Positions 1 to 6,383 of a DNA stretch of 6,383 nucleotides are shown here, piece by piece. Each line of letters opens with the position of its first letter. The stretch's first letter is position 1. The notes below the pieces were generated by a model, which saw nothing but the letters and a program-made list of their open reading frames with translations, was not told the origin of the DNA and ran no database searches. A program made the position numbers and the translations under genes. The DNA is from a virus (Duplodnaviria; Heunggongvirae; Uroviricota; Caudoviricetes): the IMG/VR virus record IMGVR_UViG_2778261541_000005. One strand, 5' to 3'.

Positions 1-70
1 AGATACCTGTATAAATAACCGGTAACTGTCAGATCAGGTCTGAGCTAATACACTTAAAGATATTGACCTT

Positions 71-277
71 ATGACTAAAGCGGGTCGTGTCGAGTGTCAG
101 TTGATTTTGTCCAAGCATCTAAAAGGTTTGACGCTAGATAAGGGGTCAGTGACGGTTAAGTTACAGAACGACACTGAGATAACCATACCTACAGACCCGC
201 TACCGCTAAATGATGGAACATCAATCTTTGAAATTGCTGAGAAAAATCTATTAAAGATAGACGGTTTTCAGTTGTAA
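71..277 (+). CDS. hypothetical small protein (68 aa), convergent to the tail genes
   Basis: ATG at 71 is the first start after an in-frame TGA at 41-43; TAA at 275-277 is followed directly by a strong intrinsic terminator. No obvious Shine-Dalgarno upstream. No family recognised. Confidence 0.4.
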   Translation: MTKAGRVECQLILSKHLKGLTLDKGSVTVKLQNDTEITIPTDPLPLNDGTSIFEIAEKNLLKIDGFQL

Positions 278-282
278 CTTAC

Positions 283-305
283 AAGGGGCTATGAAGCCCC
301 TTTTT
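283..305 (+). terminator. rho-independent terminator, probably bidirectional
   Basis: Stem GGGGCT (285-290) / AGCCCC (295-300), loop ATGA, then T5 (301-305); an AA tract on the 5' side gives a weaker U tract on the minus strand. Lies between convergent stops at 277 and 311. Confidence 0.75.
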
Positions 306-310
306 CATTT

Positions 311-1087
311 CTAGTAAGTGCCGCGCTTGTTAGGATTCACACCGTACTTTCTCAGCGCTCTACCCGTCCCGCTATTAAGCACCTTTGAAGCCTGAGCGTT
401 AGCTGCATCTGTGAAGGTACTTTCACCATTCTTGACGCTGACGCTCTTAGAACATGCTACACGGGCTTTTAACGCTTCATCTGATAGCTCGCTTGCCGAA
501 TAGCTAAATAGCTCTTTGCAAGTCAACATAGGGCTTCCAAGGCTCGTTGTAGTATTGCCAGTGTTCTTCTTAGAAGTTGTTCCACCGTCATTTGTTGTAG
601 TGGCTTTACCAGTAGCCGCACTAATATCAGTCTGTCCAACTACAGCTTTAAATTCCACACCTTGGAAAGTCATCTGAATACGAAGACCATTAGAGATAGT
701 GTGCTCTTTAGAAGCTTTAAACTGTGTAATCACTGAGTCAGTGATAGAGATTCCATCTTTAGCAACTACGGTGATAAGCTGCTTCTGGTCTCGCCATTGT
801 TCAACCGTAGAAATAAAGGTTTCTACAAGTTGCCCTTGTCTGGTTAATAGAACTGAACCTGTCGAATCAATAACTACGACGCCACTAATAGAGATAGTCT
901 TAGGTGCTCTCTGAACGTTATCAGTGATAGTTTGCCCTGATTGCATAGCCTGAGTTGTCACCATCATCGGTGAGTCATAGTCCATCTGTTCAGTAGCTGT
1001 TAAGGCAAGAAAAGATTCTACATTATCTCTAAGGTGAAAATAGATACCATCTTTACCTGAGTATCTAATTTGCTTTGTGTCAAACAT
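311..1087 (-). CDS. putative tail structural protein, distal-tail-protein-like (258 aa), with a Thr/Gly/Asn-rich linker and a C-terminal extension
   Basis: ATG at 1087 preceded by an AGGAA Shine-Dalgarno. First gene downstream of the tape measure gene, and about the size expected for a distal tail protein. Low-complexity linker [20 protein letters not shown] separates an N-terminal body of roughly 150 aa from a C-terminal domain of roughly 70 aa. Function is inferred from position and size only. Confidence 0.6.
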
Positions 1088-1116
1088 TGTTGTTATTCCT
1101 ATTCTGTTAAGCGTGA

Positions 1117-1171
1117 GCTACGTGAAATCTAATTTTTGGTGGGTATATCTGTTCAGGAGATTTCACGTAGC
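1117..1171. repeat. 14-bp perfect inverted repeat (GCTACGTGAAATCT / AGATTTCACGTAGC) with 27-nt spacer
   Basis: Arms at 1117-1130 and 1158-1171 are exact reverse complements. Sits in the 173-bp gap between the tape measure gene and the downstream tail gene; no flanking U tract, so not a canonical terminator. Confidence 0.55.
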
Positions 1172-1219
1172 ATTCGACTATTCATAGTTGAATCGTCATA
1201 CTAGATAAAGATTAATAGA

Positions 1220-1235
1220 TTGCCATGTGTGGCAA
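1220..1235. promoter_or_regulatory. palindromic site TTGCCA-N4-TGGCAA, candidate operator
   Basis: Perfect 6-bp arms at 1220-1225 and 1230-1235, in the AT-rich region upstream (minus-strand sense) of gene 311..1087. Confidence 0.3.
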
Positions 1236-1260
1236 TAAATATTAGTAGTTCTAACATTGT

Positions 1261-3327
1261 TTATTCCTCTGGGTAAGCTGAGCTAATCAAGGTATCTTCC
1301 TGCATACGATTAATATGCGATGTGGTTCTTTCATCAATAACCTTTCCATCAAGTACCGTCTGAGTTGTGATATTGATTGTCTGAGGCTGAATATTTACTG
1401 ACGGCTTGATAACCTTTAAATCCTGTGTGAATGTTTCCACTCGACCTTTCAGAGTATTTAATGCTTCATGTGAAAACTGTGGGGCATCTTTTGATTTGCC
1501 CTGAACCATAGCCCATAAAACAGCGGCTAAAGAGTTCATGTCACCAGTCAATGCTTGGTCTGTGGGTTCCACCTTTGACCTTACAACTTTATCAATTGGA
1601 TTATCTGACTTACTCATCTGACGTTCATAGAACGGTTTGACAATGGCATTAATCACATCAGTTGTCATACCGACAATCATTACTCTGGTAATTGCATCAG
1701 CTACAGATAATTTTCCTTTACCACCTTCAACACTACCGGAACGTGAATTAATTCTTCCTGCTGCTGTATTTGCTACATTTCCAAGCGTGGAAATAGCCCT
1801 AATTAAGCTCCAGATGCCACCTACAGCACCAATACCAGACCTTACAGCGACAATACCAGCAAGTCCCTTTAATGCACTTAACAGGCCATTTGCGATACCA
1901 TCAGCTACAGCTTTTTGAGTGTCATTTAATTCTCTGTAAGCAAGGGTCACTCTGTCAAAGAATCCCTGCACTCGGTAGCTAATCGTGGTTAAATCATCAA
2001 TACCGTTTGACATACTTTTCATCAAGTCGCCAAAATGTTCACCAAGATTTTTAGATTGACCACCTAGTGAATTAAGTAAATTAGTCAGTGACCTTGTAAA
2101 ATCTACAAGACCTTCCTGTGAACCATCGAACATTAAGGCCAGATTATTGTTCCATGAATTACTTAAGCGGCCTAACTGCGTCTGAGTAGAGTTAATAATC
2201 TTTTCCCATCCACCAGCTTTATCAATCATCCTTCCCATTTCAGCGGATACTTTAGGGAGAACATCTTTAGAAAGAACCTTACCGTCTTTCATGGCCTTGT
2301 CTAATTCTTCCGTAGTCATCCCAAGGCTTCTGGCAAATAACTGAAAAGCACCTGCCATTCTGTCACCTAATTGACCGCGTAGTTCTTCAGCCTGAATCTT
2401 TCCTTTAGAAGCCATCTGTTCGAAAGCTTTTAGAATCCCATTAATTTCATCAGTGCTTAAACCCATTAATCTGGATGTACCAATCACATTACTAAATAGG
2501 GATTCTTTCTGGCCTGCATCCATATCACCAGCACCAGCGGAAAACTTAGCAAAACTGCTTAATGTTTCAATCTGGTCAACACCAGTATTATTAGCAAGAT
2601 TCTTAACAAATTCTGTAGCTCGTTTAGCACCTTCATCACCTAAAACGAATTGTGCCGCTCGTTGTGATGCTTCTTTTTTCAGACCAACTTCCATAACCTT
2701 CTTGTAAGCTTCTAAGGCTGTCTGAAAACTATAAATGGCTGTACCTGCTTTGATTGCACTTGTAGCTAATACATCCAGACTATTTGAAGCATTTTCACTG
2801 TGATTATTTTTGCTGGTGGTCTTATTAAACTTAGAAAGTGTTTCACGTAGATTTTGATTTAACTTTGCTAACTCACGATTAAAAGCTTCGTTTCCAAGTG
2901 TCTTGGATTTACTGCTTAAGTTGTAATATTGGCTCTTAAAATACTTCTCAAGCATAGGATTAAAGTCACGAAGCTTGCTCATATTCACGCTATGCGCTGC
3001 TGTGATTGCTCTGTTTCCGCTAATTCGTGGCTGTCTTGCTGCTTTAACAGTTTCTTCAACCTGAGTTTTGAACTTAAAGACCTTCGTAGATTTGGCTCTT
3101 TCCTCCAGCTTATTAAAAGTCTGGTTAATCTTCTTTTCCATATTCCCCAAAGAGGCTGTTAAATCCTTATCCATGCTCTTTGGGTTAACTTTAAACGCTC
3201 TATTCAAATTACGTTCAATTCTTTGTGCTGACTGCAAAGCTGCCTTTTCAACTCTTTGCAAGCCTTTAATAACGTTTTCATTGAAGCCTAGCTCAACAAT
3301 AAAACTATCAACTGTAAATTTGCTCAT
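1261..3327 (-). CDS. phage tail tape measure protein (688 aa)
   Basis: ATG at 3327 with an AGAGGTGA Shine-Dalgarno 8 nt upstream. Long helical, Lys/Glu/Gln-rich N-terminal region; segment ELRGQLGDRMAGAFQLFARSLGMTTEELDKAMKDGKV resembling the conserved tape-measure domain; Gly-rich hydrophobic stretch LKGLAGIVAVRSGIGAVGGIWSLIRAISTLGNVANTAAG typical of these proteins. Confidence 0.85.
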   Translation of the reverse strand: MSKFTVDSFIVELGFNENVIKGLQRVEKAALQSAQRIERNLNRAFKVNPKSMDKDLTASLGNMEKKINQTFNKLEERAKSTKVFKFKTQVEETVKAARQPRISGNRAITAAHSVNMSKLRDFNPMLEKYFKSQYYNLSSKSKTLGNEAFNRELAKLNQNLRETLSKFNKTTSKNNHSENASNSLDVLATSAIKAGTAIYSFQTALEAYKKVMEVGLKKEASQRAAQFVLGDEGAKRATEFVKNLANNTGVDQIETLSSFAKFSAGAGDMDAGQKESLFSNVIGTSRLMGLSTDEINGILKAFEQMASKGKIQAEELRGQLGDRMAGAFQLFARSLGMTTEELDKAMKDGKVLSKDVLPKVSAEMGRMIDKAGGWEKIINSTQTQLGRLSNSWNNNLALMFDGSQEGLVDFTRSLTNLLNSLGGQSKNLGEHFGDLMKSMSNGIDDLTTISYRVQGFFDRVTLAYRELNDTQKAVADGIANGLLSALKGLAGIVAVRSGIGAVGGIWSLIRAISTLGNVANTAAGRINSRSGSVEGGKGKLSVADAITRVMIVGMTTDVINAIVKPFYERQMSKSDNPIDKVVRSKVEPTDQALTGDMNSLAAVLWAMVQGKSKDAPQFSHEALNTLKGRVETFTQDLKVIKPSVNIQPQTINITTQTVLDGKVIDERTTSHINRMQEDTLISSAYPEE

Positions 3328-3354
3328 TCATGTTTCACCTCTTAAGTGTTCATA

Positions 3355-3398
3355 TACGAAAAAGGGGAGGACCAACCAATTAAGGTTAATCTCTCCCC
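3355..3398 (-). terminator. rho-independent terminator on the minus strand, between gene 3447..3650 and the tape measure gene
   Basis: Minus-strand RNA: GGGGAG (3398-3393) ... CUCCCC (3369-3364), with an inner AACC/GGUU helix, followed directly by U5 (3363-3359). The tape measure Shine-Dalgarno lies about 20 nt further downstream. Confidence 0.6.
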
Positions 3399-3446
3399 GT
3401 ACTATAGATTCGATAGAACCTATCTCATATACCCAACCAATTCTTG

Positions 3447-3650
3447 TTACCTAACCAGATAATAATTACCATCTTCACCGACAATCTGACAATCACTTGG
3501 TAATTTATCAAGACACCATTTGGCTATTTTCCTGATTCTATTCTTTTGCTTAGAGGTGGATGATTTGATTCGTTTTGGTTTGTTGGGTTGTTCTTTCAGT
3601 CGTTCACTAATTGCTTTAATAAGCTCATAGCGTTCTGTTAAATCAAACAT
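3447..3650 (-). CDS. hypothetical basic small protein (67 aa)
   Basis: ATG at 3650 with a GAGGTG Shine-Dalgarno; 24 nt after the stop of the upstream gene. Lys/Arg-rich centre (PNKPKRIKSSTSKQKNRIRKIAK) suggests nucleic-acid binding. No family recognised. Confidence 0.6.
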   Translation of the reverse strand: MFDLTERYELIKAISERLKEQPNKPKRIKSSTSKQKNRIRKIAKWCLDKLPSDCQIVGEDGNYYLVR

Positions 3651-3674
3651 TAATCACCTCTTCTTAATTCATAA

Positions 3675-4385
3675 TCAAAGTGCCTTGCTATACTTCTGAG
3701 AAATCTTAGTAAGCTGCTCAATATCAGCCTGCATAGCAATCTTCTTCTGCGTTTCATAGTCACTGATTAGTTGCTTCATAGCTCTAAGCTGGTTAGCAAG
3801 CTCTTGCTTAAATCTGTTTAATTTTTTGCTATGACGCTCAAGTAGATTCTTTTCAGCTAACTGACAAATCTCTTCATCTGTTTTATCAGACAGTAAAATA
3901 TATGAACCTGTACCGCGTGAAGCTGGTCTAACATCAATTAAACGGAATCCTTCAGGGATGTTTTGAAGAACTTTTGAGATATTCTCTCTTGCTGTACCAA
4001 AACCATCATTATCTTCAACTGAGTAATATACGAATGGATTTTGTCTAATTTCCACTTCAATATCAAAATCAGTTGGCTTCTCAGTCTCTTCAAAGTTCTT
4101 CACATTGTCGTAAGCGTCATCTAGTCTAAGGCGCTGTGCTTTTAGCAGTGGGTAATATTCACGCTCAAGCTCAAGTAGTGCTTCAGTTTTGCAGATATCA
4201 GGCATTTCTTGAGGCTCAGGGGCTACAAAGGTAATTTGCTTTGGTGACATCTTTAACTCTTGCTCAAGTGCAATTCTTTCATCGTGTTCTTTACGCTGAA
4301 TAGTGATAGCTGGATGTTCACCCTGTGGTGACCAGTCACCGAAGCTATCAATCACTTTGCCATTAATGTAAATATCATTTGTCAT
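3675..4385 (-). CDS. hypothetical acidic protein (236 aa) with predicted coiled-coil C-terminus
   Basis: The ORF track starts this frame at a GTG at 4430; the ATG at 4385 is preferred because AGAGGA lies 6 nt upstream. Strongly acidic; C-terminal heptad-like segment ELANQLRAMKQLISDYETQKKIAMQADIEQLTKISQKY. No family recognised. Confidence 0.7.
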   Translation of the reverse strand: MTNDIYINGKVIDSFGDWSPQGEHPAITIQRKEHDERIALEQELKMSPKQITFVAPEPQEMPDICKTEALLELEREYYPLLKAQRLRLDDAYDNVKNFEETEKPTDFDIEVEIRQNPFVYYSVEDNDGFGTARENISKVLQNIPEGFRLIDVRPASRGTGSYILLSDKTDEEICQLAEKNLLERHSKKLNRFKQELANQLRAMKQLISDYETQKKIAMQADIEQLTKISQKYSKAL

Positions 4386-4393
4386 TGTTTTTC

Positions 4394-4496
4394 CTCTTCT
4401 AAGTAGGTATTCAGTTTTTAAAAAGCACACCTGACAGCCTACGAACTTAGAAGAGACTTAAAAGCGTTTGCCAAGTATGCTTTTTAAAAACTGAAT
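4394..4496 (-). promoter_or_regulatory. structured 5' leader of gene 3675..4385: 19-bp perfect inverted repeat plus 11-bp anti-Shine-Dalgarno-like repeat
   Basis: ATTCAGTTTTTAAAAAGCA (4409-4427) is the exact reverse complement of TGCTTTTTAAAAACTGAAT (4478-4496), with a 50-bp spacer. Inside the spacer, ACTTAGAAGAG (4445-4455) is the exact reverse complement of CTCTTCTAAGT (4394-4404), which overlaps the GAGG core (4393-4396) of the Shine-Dalgarno. Confidence 0.5.
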
Positions 4497-4597
4497 GACC
4501 CTAGATAATTTCTTATAAAGGGCCATTCATAAGGTGAAGAAATTAAAAGAACATCTAAAGGATTCAATAATGAATTGAATGAACAAAGACTTTTGAG

Positions 4598-4626
4598 ATG
4601 ACCTCTTATATAGTTTGAGAGGTCAT
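4598..4626. repeat. hairpin, 9-bp perfect stem (ATGACCTCT / AGAGGTCAT) with 11-nt loop
   Basis: Arms at 4598-4606 and 4618-4626 are exact reverse complements. Intergenic; no U tract on either strand, so not a canonical terminator. Confidence 0.45.
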
Positions 4627-4720
4627 GTAGCGAAAAGCATTGCACCTTTCCAACTCAGAATATCCATCCATCGGATTATTGAAAGAAAAATAAGAGAGAA
4701 TTGCTCTCCCTATATATACA

Positions 4721-4749
4721 ATTATGTCATGCTCAAGGTTATTTGTCAA
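4721..4749 (-). promoter_or_regulatory. putative sigma70-type promoter (TTGACA-17 bp-CATAAT), minus strand
   Basis: On the minus strand: perfect -35 TTGACA (4749-4744), 17-bp spacer, -10 CATAAT (4726-4721). Sits just downstream of the peptide ORF stop (4775) and about 330 nt upstream of gene 3675..4385. Confidence 0.45.
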
Positions 4750-4774
4750 CAGCTTTTTAACAGATTGGTAACAT

Positions 4775-4840
4775 TTATACTTTAATAGATGCACCTGCAA
4801 TCATACCAATCAATACAAAACAGATAATCACCAATTCCAT
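4775..4840 (-). CDS. candidate small hydrophobic peptide (21 aa, MELVIICFVLIGMIAGASIKV), not in the ORF track
   Basis: ATG at 4840-4838 overlaps the TAA stop of the 109-aa gene (TAATG); GGTGGTG Shine-Dalgarno-like motif 5 nt upstream; TAA at 4777-4775. One predicted transmembrane-length hydrophobic segment. Confidence 0.3.
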   Translation of the reverse strand: MELVIICFVLIGMIAGASIKV

Positions 4841-5169
4841 TAATGCACCACCTTCGAATCCGTAACCAAAATATTGTCAGCGTACAGGATTGCTATGGCT
4901 GCCTTGAGATATTTTTCAGGGCTAACGCTGTATTTGTTCGTTTCTTCGATAATCAATCTTTTCATGTTCGAATCTGTTACAGGAAACATAAAACGCGGTT
5001 CACCAGTTTCAATTTCCTGAATAAAGTCAGAGATGTTTTCTGCATTATCAGCCATTAGCTTTAACAGCCTGTCAAAATCAATTTCCACACCTGCATCAAT
5101 GAAGCTTTGCACCATCATAGCGGTGTCGCTATCAACGAAAATCTGTAGCGGGAAGTTTAATTCTCTCAT
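4840..5169 (-). CDS. hypothetical acidic protein (109 aa)
   Basis: ATG at 5169 with an AAGGAGA Shine-Dalgarno 9 nt upstream. By my count about 19 Asp/Glu against 10 Lys/Arg. No family recognised. Confidence 0.7.
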   Translation of the reverse strand: MRELNFPLQIFVDSDTAMMVQSFIDAGVEIDFDRLLKLMADNAENISDFIQEIETGEPRFMFPVTDSNMKRLIIEETNKYSVSPEKYLKAAIAILYADNILVTDSKVVH

Positions 5170-5236
5170 TTCTTAAAATCTCCTTTTTACCAGACCTCCT
5201 CAATCGCTCTGTAACGAGCTAAACAGTCTTTTTCAG

Positions 5237-5266
5237 GGGTGGCCTGTACAGTGGTATTACCCACCC
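5237..5266. repeat. GC-rich hairpin (GGGTGG / CCACCC) with palindromic CTGTACAG in the loop
   Basis: Stem 5237-5242 / 5261-5266; loop holds the perfect 8-bp palindrome CTGTACAG (5244-5251). Lies in the 179-bp gap upstream of gene 4840..5169. Confidence 0.35.
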
Positions 5267-5348
5267 TAAAATAAGATAGTTTTTTGCGTTAGAATGCGAT
5301 TGAGAGCGTCTGAGAAGCTGTTTTTCTAATTTCTCTTAAAGTCTCGGA

Positions 5349-5549
5349 CTACCAATAGCCTAATTCCACTTTATTTCGTTCAAACCATTCCGCTGTAACT
5401 GCTGTTTTCAGTGTTTCATTTGGGCTGGTGGCATGAATGAAGATATCTTTTGGATTGTGAATATCACCGAAACAATCTTCTTTGATGAGCAAGTCTGATA
5501 CATGCTTAATCATTTTATCTGTCAAATATTCGAATTTAATACATAACAT
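5349..5549 (-). CDS. hypothetical protein (66 aa), third gene of a coupled operon
   Basis: The ORF track starts at a TTG at 5582, overlapping the upstream gene by 34 nt. The ATG at 5549 is preferred: it overlaps the upstream TAA stop as TAATG and has GGAGA upstream. The start remains uncertain. Confidence 0.55.
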   Translation of the reverse strand: MLCIKFEYLTDKMIKHVSDLLIKEDCFGDIHNPKDIFIHATSPNETLKTAVTAEWFERNKVELGYW

Positions 5550-5821
5550 TAAATCTCCAGTAGTAAATTGTTTGGGTGGCAATTTCTTTTATTACCATCC
5601 CTGAAGATAATCTTTTTAGTTGCCTGAACTTCATGATGCAAAAACCAGATGACATACTTCAGATAATAATCACGAGTGCCATAACGAATCATTGGATTAC
5701 CGTAAGCGTCATCTCTTGTCTTAACTTCTCCGCCATCAATCCATTCAAGCATTCCTGTCTCATAATTAATCGTGAAGTAAGTTGCAAAGAACCGTTTAAT
5801 ATCATCTCGCCATTGCTTCAT
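5549..5821 (-). CDS. HNH-like small protein (90 aa), HNH_3/AP2-like with an apparently degenerate catalytic motif
   Basis: ATG at 5821 with a GGAGG Shine-Dalgarno 7 nt upstream. C-terminal IWFLHH...IIFRDGNKRNCHPNNLL resembles the HNH_3 core (H-x-DGN...NN...NL), but the His that normally precedes DGN reads F-R. N-terminal YFTINYETGMLEW resembles the Y-x-V-S-N-x-G element of that family. By-eye comparison only. Confidence 0.6.
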   Translation of the reverse strand: MKQWRDDIKRFFATYFTINYETGMLEWIDGGEVKTRDDAYGNPMIRYGTRDYYLKYVIWFLHHEVQATKKIIFRDGNKRNCHPNNLLLEI

Positions 5822-5823
5822 AA

Positions 5824-6102
5824 TCAGACCTCCAGAGACAGCTTGCGAAGCTTGATGCTCAATAGACGGGCAATATCAATTTTAAAGCTGTTAAGTGCCT
5901 TCAAAGTATCTAAAGCGTCCTGAGTAATTCGGATGTGTTTACGACCTTTAGAGACTGGATATTTAAGTAAATCCGACTCAGTGACTTCTTTAGCGATTGC
6001 AAGTTGCATAACAGTTTGATGAGGCAAGTTAGTCGCTCGTTTAATTCTGGTAAGCTCGTTAAAAGCTTCCTCTGAAATACGGGTTAGAGTGTGTTTATTC
6101 AT
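5824..6102 (-). CDS. putative DNA-binding protein with two ribbon-helix-helix-like repeats (92 aa)
   Basis: The ORF track starts at a TTG at 6201; the ATG at 6102 is preferred because GGAGGA lies 9 nt upstream. TLTRIS-EEAFNELTRIKRATN-LP-HQTVMQLAIAKEV fits a beta-alpha-alpha pattern; KHIRIT-QDALDTLKALNSFK-IDIARLLSIKL repeats it. The TGA stop is 2 nt from the next gene's ATG. Confidence 0.6.
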   Translation of the reverse strand: MNKHTLTRISEEAFNELTRIKRATNLPHQTVMQLAIAKEVTESDLLKYPVSKGRKHIRITQDALDTLKALNSFKIDIARLLSIKLRKLSLEV

Positions 6103-6103
6103 T

Positions 6104-6211
6104 TTAAAATTCCTCCAAAATATACGGATCAAACTCAAAGTCTGGCTCACTTGTCGTAAGGCTGACATTTCCCATTTCCGCATGATGATTGATTGCCTCA
6201 ATAACTTTCAT
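6104..6211 (-). CDS. possible small acidic ORF (35 aa), weakly supported
   Basis: ATG at 6211 to TAA at 6106-6104, one base before the ATG of gene 5824..6102. No convincing Shine-Dalgarno, so it may be non-coding leader. Confidence 0.2.
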   Translation of the reverse strand: MKVIEAINHHAEMGNVSLTTSEPDFEFDPYILEEF

Positions 6212-6383
6212 GCAAACGGTGTTTAGGTTAGCGCAATATTTATCGCTTGGTAGCTCATGGCTTAATCGGGTCGCTTGACGCTGAAGATAATTTGTTACTG
6301 TGCTTGAGCTAATATCATCAAGACTTCGGGTAGTGACTCCAACTTACTGATAGTGTTTTATGTTCAGATAATGCCCGATGACC

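Follow-up and report, generated by a model that had tools for sequence, protein, structure and literature searches.

A gene for a predicted 21- to 25-residue membrane microprotein at the end of the putative early operon of an enterobacterial chromosomal island

The DNA described here, referred to as the window, is a stretch of 6,383 nucleotides (nt) held in IMG/VR as virus record IMGVR_UViG_2778261541_000005. The whole of it (positions 1–6383) is a remnant, flanked by insertion sequences (IS), of a chromosomal island of about 11 kb, and every gene lies on the minus strand. The subject of this work is a very short open reading frame (ORF) on that strand at 4840–4775, comprising 21 codons and a stop, which translates to MELVIICFVLIGMIAGASIKV. 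As judged from related loci, this ORF is a protein-coding gene maintained by purifying selection. It is predicted to be the last cistron of the early operon of the island. The features at and around the gene are as follows:

4775–4840, minus strand: predicted single-pass membrane microprotein, class A allele, assigned from translation, hydrophobicity and conservation
4838–4842, minus strand: TAATG stop/start overlap (translational coupling junction), found in 125 of 127 loci
4846–4854, minus strand: Shine–Dalgarno-like AAGGTGGTG, within the final codons of the gene for a 109-amino-acid (aa) protein
4840–5169, minus strand: the acidic 109-aa protein (pI 4.39), encoded by the preceding cistron and modelled by AlphaFold2 (AF2) as a tandem beta-alpha-alpha, ribbon-helix-helix (RHH)-like protein
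4721–4749, minus strand: near-consensus sigma-70 promoter, TTGACA-17-TGcATAAT, with 11 of 12 matches and a TG extension
4683–4711, minus strand: hairpin AGGGAGAGCAATTCTCTCT (4711–4693) followed by a T-run, candidate terminator of the operon of the peptide, about 65 nt past the peptide stop

The original prediction had placed an unannotated, hydrophobic 21-aa peptide at this position, with an ATG overlapping the upstream stop codon, a Shine–Dalgarno-like motif ahead of it and a gene for an acidic protein before that. Translation bears this out, and the strand, which had been left unstated, is the minus strand. Around the start of the peptide gene this strand reads ...gattcgAAGGTGGTGcatTAATGgaattg..., where the TAA of the 109-aa gene occupies 4842–4840 and the ATG of the peptide gene 4840–4838, one A being common to both. 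The AAGGTGGTG motif at 4854–4846 lies 6 to 14 nt 5' of the ATG and is a good match to the Shine–Dalgarno (SD) sequence. The upstream protein is indeed acidic, as it contains 19 aspartate and glutamate residues and 10 lysine and arginine residues. The peptide is also unannotated, since PGAP calls no gene at this position in any of 18 Escherichia coli RefSeq regions. The six frames of the window contain 28 ATG-started ORFs of 20–40 aa, among which the peptide ranks first in hydrophobicity, with a grand average of hydropathy (GRAVY) of 2.21 and the next at 1.33. ORFs that are equally or more hydrophobic occur at 0.005 per shuffled window. Frameshift fusion to the 109-aa protein was considered and rejected: the peptide is in the -1 frame of that gene, which is closed 12 codons before the ATG, and an X_XXY_YYZ slippery site was not found before the 109-aa stop.

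Related loci were assembled from three sources: the 18 E. coli RefSeq regions, which span the identity range; loci found via a 236-aa protein encoded downstream; and exact scans of IMG/VR and metagenome contigs for the promoter block 3' of the peptide gene, an anchor that is independent of the content of the ORF. The resulting 127 loci represent 110 distinct sequence contexts and come from Escherichia, Shigella, Citrobacter, IMG/VR contigs and gut metagenomes. An intact ORF of 21 or 25 codons with the TAATG overlap is present in 125 of the 127 (it was intact in all 24 loci first inspected). The two exceptions are a metagenome locus with an internal deletion that shifts the frame and a locus that is truncated at its 5' end. 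Loss of the frame in related genomes had been named at the outset as grounds for abandoning the peptide, and the frame is kept.

Two forms of the peptide were found. Class A, the 21-aa form of the window, was found with at least 95% identity in 198 of 5426 complete E. coli genomes, and a 25-aa positional homologue is present in a further 241. The 25-aa form, exemplified by MGLIIAWTLLGLFVGCWVGNTVNKN, is the commoner among relatives and exists as sub-types ending in ...GCW[V/M]GNTVNKN, ...GCIINNAVNKN and ...GCLIANAANRN. The ORF is also carried by islands of Citrobacter amalonaticus, Citrobacter braakii and Salmonella enterica, where the two Salmonella loci, which are additional to the 127, have the 25-aa form.

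The pattern of substitution is that of a translated sequence. The 25-aa class (B/C) comprises 59 distinct nucleotide sequences encoding 32 peptides, and the minimum numbers of changes at codon positions 1, 2 and 3 are 18, 15 and 32, respectively. The ratio of non-synonymous to synonymous polymorphism (pN/pS) is 0.29 in the frame of the ORF, as against 1.10 and 1.36 in the two alternative frames, which contain stops in 59 of 59 sequences. Residues L10, G11, G15, C16, N20 and N23 are invariant in this class even though their codons vary synonymously. Insertions and deletions are absent from the 59 distinct class B sequences, whereas the nearby leader ranges from about 340 to 550 nt across loci. 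The value for class A is 0.34, calculated from seven sequences that are too uniform to give much power. Initiation signals are conserved as well: an SD match is present in 108 of 108 distinct junctions, with SD:anti-SD duplex energies of -5.4 to -9.1 kcal/mol, whereas control windows in the upstream gene have a mean of -1.7 kcal/mol. It is the combination of frame conservation, purifying selection and a conserved SD and TAATG junction that supports the assignment as a coding gene. These same features uphold the original prediction of a coding, coupled peptide of transmembrane length, and the gene is very probably translated.

Both classes of the peptide have one hydrophobic helix of about 17 residues. 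The mean Kyte–Doolittle hydropathy over 17 residues is 2.81 for the window peptide and 2.48 for its counterpart in an intact copy of the island in E. coli A10 (locus L001). These values are above those of all other island products, which include 1.65 for the tape-measure protein and 1.86 for a 185-aa protein of L001. The helix contains a GxxxG motif, formed by G12 and G16 in class A and by G11 and G15, often together with G15 and G19, in the 25-aa class. A short polar tail follows in both classes, with a single basic residue two positions from the C-terminal end, and class A has an acidic residue at position 2. The N-termini are ME-, MG-, MT-, MS-, MA-, MM- or MV-, and lysine or arginine does not precede the helix in any of 40-odd variants. 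From the positive-inside rule, a single-pass topology with the N-terminus out and the C-terminus in is predicted. The peptide is thus a product of under 60 aa with a hydrophobic single helix, and of under 50 aa with one predicted transmembrane helix, and it probably inserts into the membrane. On the same comparison of hydrophobicity it is predicted to be the only dedicated membrane product of the island, as no other island product has a segment of transmembrane grade that could make it a co-encoded membrane partner. A partner could be encoded by the host or by a phage.

Relatives of the peptide were sought in several collections. An exact look-up of four common variants in a collection of 15 billion proteins found them absent. 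In tblastn, the 25-aa peptide gave no phage match and one chance match, to a Streptomyces plasmid (E = 6). A full-text literature search for the peptide sequences found no paper. On these searches the peptide represents a new family that annotation has missed and whose relatives were not detected in phages or plasmids.

The position of the gene in the island is predicted from the signals on either side of it. The upstream block of the near-consensus promoter at 4749–4721, GTTAAAAAGCTGTTGACA, begins 9–12 nt past the peptide stop (10–12 nt by a cruder anchor) and is kept in more than 120 loci. At this promoter-like site the early operon is predicted to end and a tail-gene operon to begin. In the window, neither a terminator inside the early operon nor a promoter between the preceding gene and the peptide gene was found. 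In L001, a promoter-like site (TTGACA-17-TG-TAGTAT, 10 of 12 matches with an extended -10) lies at 14839–14811, ahead of the 185-aa gene with which the early operon opens, and a divergent promoter of 11 of 12 matches forms a pair with it. No convincing terminator was found between this early promoter and the peptide gene in L001; two terminator hits overlap one weak stem inside a 102-aa coding sequence, with no T-run behind it.

The hairpin that follows the promoter at 4711–4693 has a stem that is kept, over 68 distinct versions, by paired changes on both arms, and its T-run is not always kept. The hairpin begins about 3 nt past the predicted transcription start of the 4749–4721 promoter. Three roles are possible for it: to terminate the early operon, to stabilise (as a 5' stem-loop) or attenuate the tail-gene transcript, or to serve as a DNA operator. 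Attenuation of the leader-peptide type was rejected because the peptide stop, about 65 nt away, is too far for a terminating ribosome to act on the hairpin. Further along, a leader of about 290 nt precedes the 236-aa gene of the window and ends in a 27-bp hairpin. This second hairpin (4405–4501, minus strand, stem of about 27 bp), which L001 has as well, immediately precedes the ribosome-binding site of the 236-aa gene on the 5' side. Its folding energy is -46.4 kcal/mol, with a z-score of -9.7 relative to shuffled sequence. It may serve as an RNase III site or in translational or antitermination control of the tail-gene operon, and the long stem accounts for spurious, sub-threshold matches to Rfam microRNA precursors.

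The acidic 109-aa protein had been proposed to form a small effector pair with the peptide, and this part of the original prediction is not supported. The AF2 model of the 109-aa protein (mean predicted local distance difference test, or pLDDT, 77.8) has two beta-alpha-alpha units and a disordered C-terminal tail, the elements being E8-12, H14-25, H32-41, H43-52, E60-64, H67-79 and H84-97. Its best Foldseek matches are weak (E 0.13 to 1, TM score about 0.4) and are to chains of about 110 residues from the F-plasmid relaxosome and to VirC2, which are tandem or single-chain RHH proteins. Because these matches are weak, the fold assignment is tentative. The protein has no Pfam, PHROG, PADLOC or NCBIfam match, and neither it nor the 236-aa protein gave a phage match in tblastn. 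As modelled, it looks like a nucleic-acid- or protein-binding regulator and not like a membrane partner. Its acidity is unusual for a DNA binder.

The genetics of the locus also argue against a cognate pair. The 109-aa family comprises two clades that are about 28% identical to each other, and the peptide classes A, B1, B2 and C occur with the two upstream clades in nearly all combinations. For example, one and the same upstream allele, ending in SKVVH, is found ahead of class A in 23 distinct contexts and ahead of class B1 in 22. In a C. braakii island (L134), a 74-aa gene lies between a 102-aa gene and the peptide gene, and it is this 74-aa gene to which the peptide is TAATG-coupled. The peptide thus stays with the downstream promoter block while the upstream genes vary. 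The 109-aa family is diverse within Escherichia (3477 clusters at 90% identity, E <= 0.001). The extra 74-aa gene, which begins MKVQIDEVIKKFDF..., is found in some Citrobacter islands (L134 7325–7549 and L132 7322–7546). The slot between the HNH gene and the peptide gene is occupied by variable cargo, being 77 aa in the window, 128 aa in L001 and 67–132 aa elsewhere.

The island itself gives the context in which the peptide may act. In transcription order, the window encodes:

early part, minus strand: the tail of a 185-aa protein, a 125-aa ORF, a 90-aa HNH protein, a 77-aa ORF, the 109-aa gene and the peptide
after the peptide, minus strand: the promoter, the leader of about 290 nt, a 236-aa protein, a 67-aa protein and a 688-aa tape-measure protein (Pfam TMP_3)
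end, minus strand: a 258-aa Dit-like protein and the last 75 or so codons of a serine recombinase

The intact copy L001, from E. coli A10 (NZ_CP195143), occupies 6700–17300, lies between tonB and yciI and encodes a serine recombinase of 506 aa; strain ZJ3920 also has an intact island. Related sequence is chromosomal in 479 of the 5426 complete E. coli genomes and was never found on plasmids. A single scan of genome contigs gave two loci, and a profile search of IMG/VR for distant islands returned close relatives only. Along its entire length the tape-measure protein shares about 30% identity with the tape-measure proteins of FelixO1-like phages, and the Dit-like gene has 76–77% nucleotide identity to the Suspvirus gene located next after that for the tape-measure protein. 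For the other island proteins no phage homologue was found. Searches of the non-tail island proteins against PADLOC, Pfam, PHROGs and NCBIfam gave nothing usable beyond an HNH domain match below the cut-off. A literature search on the island (satellite, tape measure, FelixO1, Ounavirinae, serine recombinase) found no description of it. Its gene content suggests an island, so far undescribed, that acts as a satellite of FelixO1-like virulent phages or as a defence against them.

In the window, an IS end truncates the recombinase gene at about 57, and the end of an IS1 truncates the first gene of the early operon at about 6320. As a result of these truncations the island copy is immobilised and has lost its early promoter. 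The right end of the window (6322–6383) is IS1, and the left end (1–57) matches sequence annotated beside IsaA in phage RCS47. The 236-aa protein (3675–4385, minus strand) is called a transposase in RefSeq for many genomes; it has no Pfam or NCBIfam transposase domain and no phage homologue, and the name appears to be unfounded. Its model has long helices at H68-101 and H170-235 with a predicted TM score (pTM) of 0.46, and BFVD returned coiled-coil noise only. The 251-aa version with a GTG start in the ORF list is probably wrong, since homologues start at the ATG at 4385. In L001, the 2 kb or so from 14760 to 16700 has no annotated gene or Rfam match and starts at the divergent promoter-like pair (14811–14876). 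An unannotated ORF of 70 aa with a hydrophobic, glycine-rich segment lies at 14968–15180, just 3' of the rightward promoter, and the region is a possible replication origin, source of regulatory RNA or site of missed genes.

Very small membrane peptides are known from several settings. The toxins of the Ibs/Sib, ShoB/OhsC and TisB/IstR-1 systems have 19–30 residues, form a very hydrophobic single helix and are often missed by gene callers. The likeness in composition is close (GRAVY 2.21 for the peptide and 2.44 for IbsC); these toxins, however, are separate units under the control of antisense or trans-acting RNA, whereas the peptide is a coupled last cistron for which a partner RNA was not found. 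KdpF (29 aa), AcrZ (49 aa), MgtS, MgrB and CydX are also single helices encoded by short operon cistrons, and they bind a larger membrane protein. They resemble the peptide in the single transmembrane helix, which often has small-xxx-small packing motifs, and in the short operon cistron. What they bind is usually a known host complex or a product of their own operon, whereas in the island hydrophobic segments occur in just one other product, the tape-measure protein. HK97 gp15 and T4 Imm are single-pass inner-membrane proteins that hinder the entry of phage DNA, a process that involves the tape-measure protein. They too are encoded by mobile elements, but are several times larger than the peptide and unrelated to it in sequence.

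The nearest precedent is LidI of the Vibrio cholerae PLE satellites. This small transmembrane protein, which annotation had earlier missed, collapses the lysis inhibition of the helper phage and so speeds up lysis (PMC7182436). It has 66 or 121 aa, was found by synteny and has no homologues or domains beyond its transmembrane segment (PMC7182436). Like the peptide, it is a small predicted transmembrane protein that was at first unannotated and is encoded by a serine-recombinase island, and PLE parasitises a virulent myophage. The comparison is one of description and not of sequence, and LidI is larger than the 21–25 aa found here. In addition, the effect of LidI was shown by experiment, whereas the peptide is known from its sequence.

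The favoured interpretation, towards which the balance tips slightly, is that the gene is under selection, stands at the end of the early operon and encodes a membrane-inserting effector that works during infection by FelixO1-like phages. At 21–25 residues the chain would be complete before it left the ribosome, so that insertion must be post-translational. Once released, the peptide would enter the inner membrane with its N-terminus out and its C-terminus in, and would act through helix–helix packing mediated by GxxxG. Packing with itself might perturb the membrane potential; alternatively, its partner might be a membrane protein of a phage or of the host, for instance a holin, an antiholin or a DNA-entry component. 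During infection by a FelixO1-like phage the outcome would be a change in the timing of lysis, in the integrity of the membrane or in the entry of DNA. That the peptide is a phage-related membrane effector of this general kind is put at slightly less than an even chance, and a role in control of lysis or of membrane potential, as opposed to entry exclusion, is rather doubtful. The most far-reaching version is equally speculative. Here, the peptide would be the membrane effector of undescribed islands of E. coli, Citrobacter and Salmonella that parasitise or resist FelixO1-like phages, acting on the holin or antiholin of the helper or on insertion of the tape-measure protein at the inner membrane. 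It would then be the smallest satellite-encoded effector known, and an arms race with phage membrane proteins would have left its mark in the recombining classes A, B1, B2 and C.

Several observations weigh against an effector of this kind. The view of the island as a satellite of FelixO1-like phages itself derives from gene content. Searches of the window's island proteins with Pfam and PHROGs found no endolysin, spanin or other lysis gene; the Dit-like protein has a secondary PHROG match to 'endolysin' (E 2e-20), which is greatly outscored by the match of this protein to a family of unknown function (E 7e-126). The tails of the peptide, ...ASIKV in class A and ...NTVNKN in the 25-aa class, are not the highly charged, hydrophilic C-terminal domain typical of holins. 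Because the IS1 insertion removed the early promoter, expression of the peptide in the genome of the window is doubtful and the gene may be silent. Finally, in Citrobacter freundii (L132 and L133, at about 7540–7560, compared with L134 at 7546) a 12-nt deletion between two TAAT repeats has removed the ATG and the first four codons, leaving the remaining 21 codons without a start. This start loss is lineage-specific, with 19 similar places reported. Together with the frameshifted and the 5'-truncated locus, it indicates that the gene is dispensable in some backgrounds.

The roles suggested at first, namely a toxin, a holin-like or kil-like factor or a modulator of a membrane complex, are all candidates. 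Other roles for a membrane peptide at this position can be weighed against the same evidence. If it served entry exclusion, the peptide would reside in the inner membrane of the uninfected cell and block delivery of incoming phage DNA, for example by disturbing insertion of the tape-measure protein, with the divergent tape-measure protein of the island being unaffected. The island protein is only 30% identical to those of the related phages and carries the glycine-rich hydrophobic segment LAGIVAVRSGIGAVGGI, the early-operon promoter looks strong, and HK97 gp15 and T4 Imm are precedents for small, single-pass blockers of DNA entry at the inner membrane. A sequence relation to known exclusion proteins was not found, however, and a peptide of 21–25 residues has no extramembrane domain, so that exclusion is unlikely. 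A toxin/antidote or abortive-infection pair, in which the RHH-like 109-aa protein neutralises or controls a membrane-toxic peptide in the manner of a type II system, would explain the gene order, as an antitoxin followed by a TAATG-coupled toxin is the expected layout. The RHH-like repeats and disordered C-terminal tail of the upstream model suit such an antitoxin, and peptides of 19–30 residues, such as Ibs and TisB, can depolarise membranes. Yet the peptide classes and upstream clades do not co-vary, the 74-aa gene intervenes in C. braakii and takes over the coupling, and a soluble acidic protein is an unlikely binder of a peptide that is almost wholly buried in the membrane; this pairing is distinctly unlikely. 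An improbable variant is a type I-like toxin with an RNA antitoxin that has escaped recognition. Its appeal is that the peptide has the size and composition of the Ibs, ShoB and TisB class and that its gene adjoins a structured, conserved non-coding region. Such a toxin would be expected to have its own structured leader, but the peptide gene is a downstream cistron coupled through TAATG at 125 of 127 loci. A promoter scan also found no conserved antisense promoter near the ORF, and neither the window (sub-threshold, spurious matches apart) nor the intact island has an Rfam match. Nor does the adjacent leader look like an RNA antitoxin: its pairing with the initiation region (-40.8 kcal/mol) is no better than the mean for shuffled sequence (-43.4 kcal/mol).

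For the 25-aa class alone, residues 1–15 might be a signal peptide, cleaved before Cys16 to release a lipopeptide of 10 residues such as C-WVGNTVNKN. G15 and C16 are invariant in the 59 distinct sequences despite synonymous changes in both codons, and the preceding L-[F/L]-[V/C]-G-C resembles the lipobox [LVI][ASTVI][GAS]C, although the F at position -3 departs from the consensus. A lipoprotein or exported precursor is nevertheless very improbable: a basic N-terminal region is found in no class, the sole basic residue near the C-terminus favours the opposite topology, and class A (...MIAG-ASIKV), whose cysteine is at position 7, has no Cys there and yet occupies the same slot in 198 genomes. 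Lastly, the ORF could be a non-functional spacer for the neighbouring promoter or for termination of the operon, open and hydrophobic by chance. It is very short, it occupies about -45 to -110 relative to the start predicted for a strongly conserved promoter, and some lineages have lost it. Against this, changes concentrate at third codon positions and pN/pS is low in the frame of the ORF only, and the 59 class B sequences keep their length beside a leader that does not. Moreover, the ATG, the SD sequence, the open frame and the hydrophobic helix are preserved in two classes whose sequences diverge along most of their length; as such dissimilar sequences keep the same coding features, what is conserved is not a common DNA operator. 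A spacer is therefore hardly credible.

Small hydrophobic peptides on mobile elements are already a known kind, and proteins under 30 residues are systematically missed by annotation. The microprotein gene described here is carried by about 8% of complete E. coli genomes and is under purifying selection. It offers a clean, testable example of a mobile-element microprotein and marks a new island family, and the module formed by the coupled peptide gene, the consensus promoter and the hairpin is an annotation landmark for these islands even if the role of the peptide is minor. The island that surrounds it may be the more surprising object of the two. FelixO1-like virulent phages are a group used in phage typing and therapy, and if it is true that the peptide governs lysis or DNA entry, it would provide a minimal tool for studying those steps.

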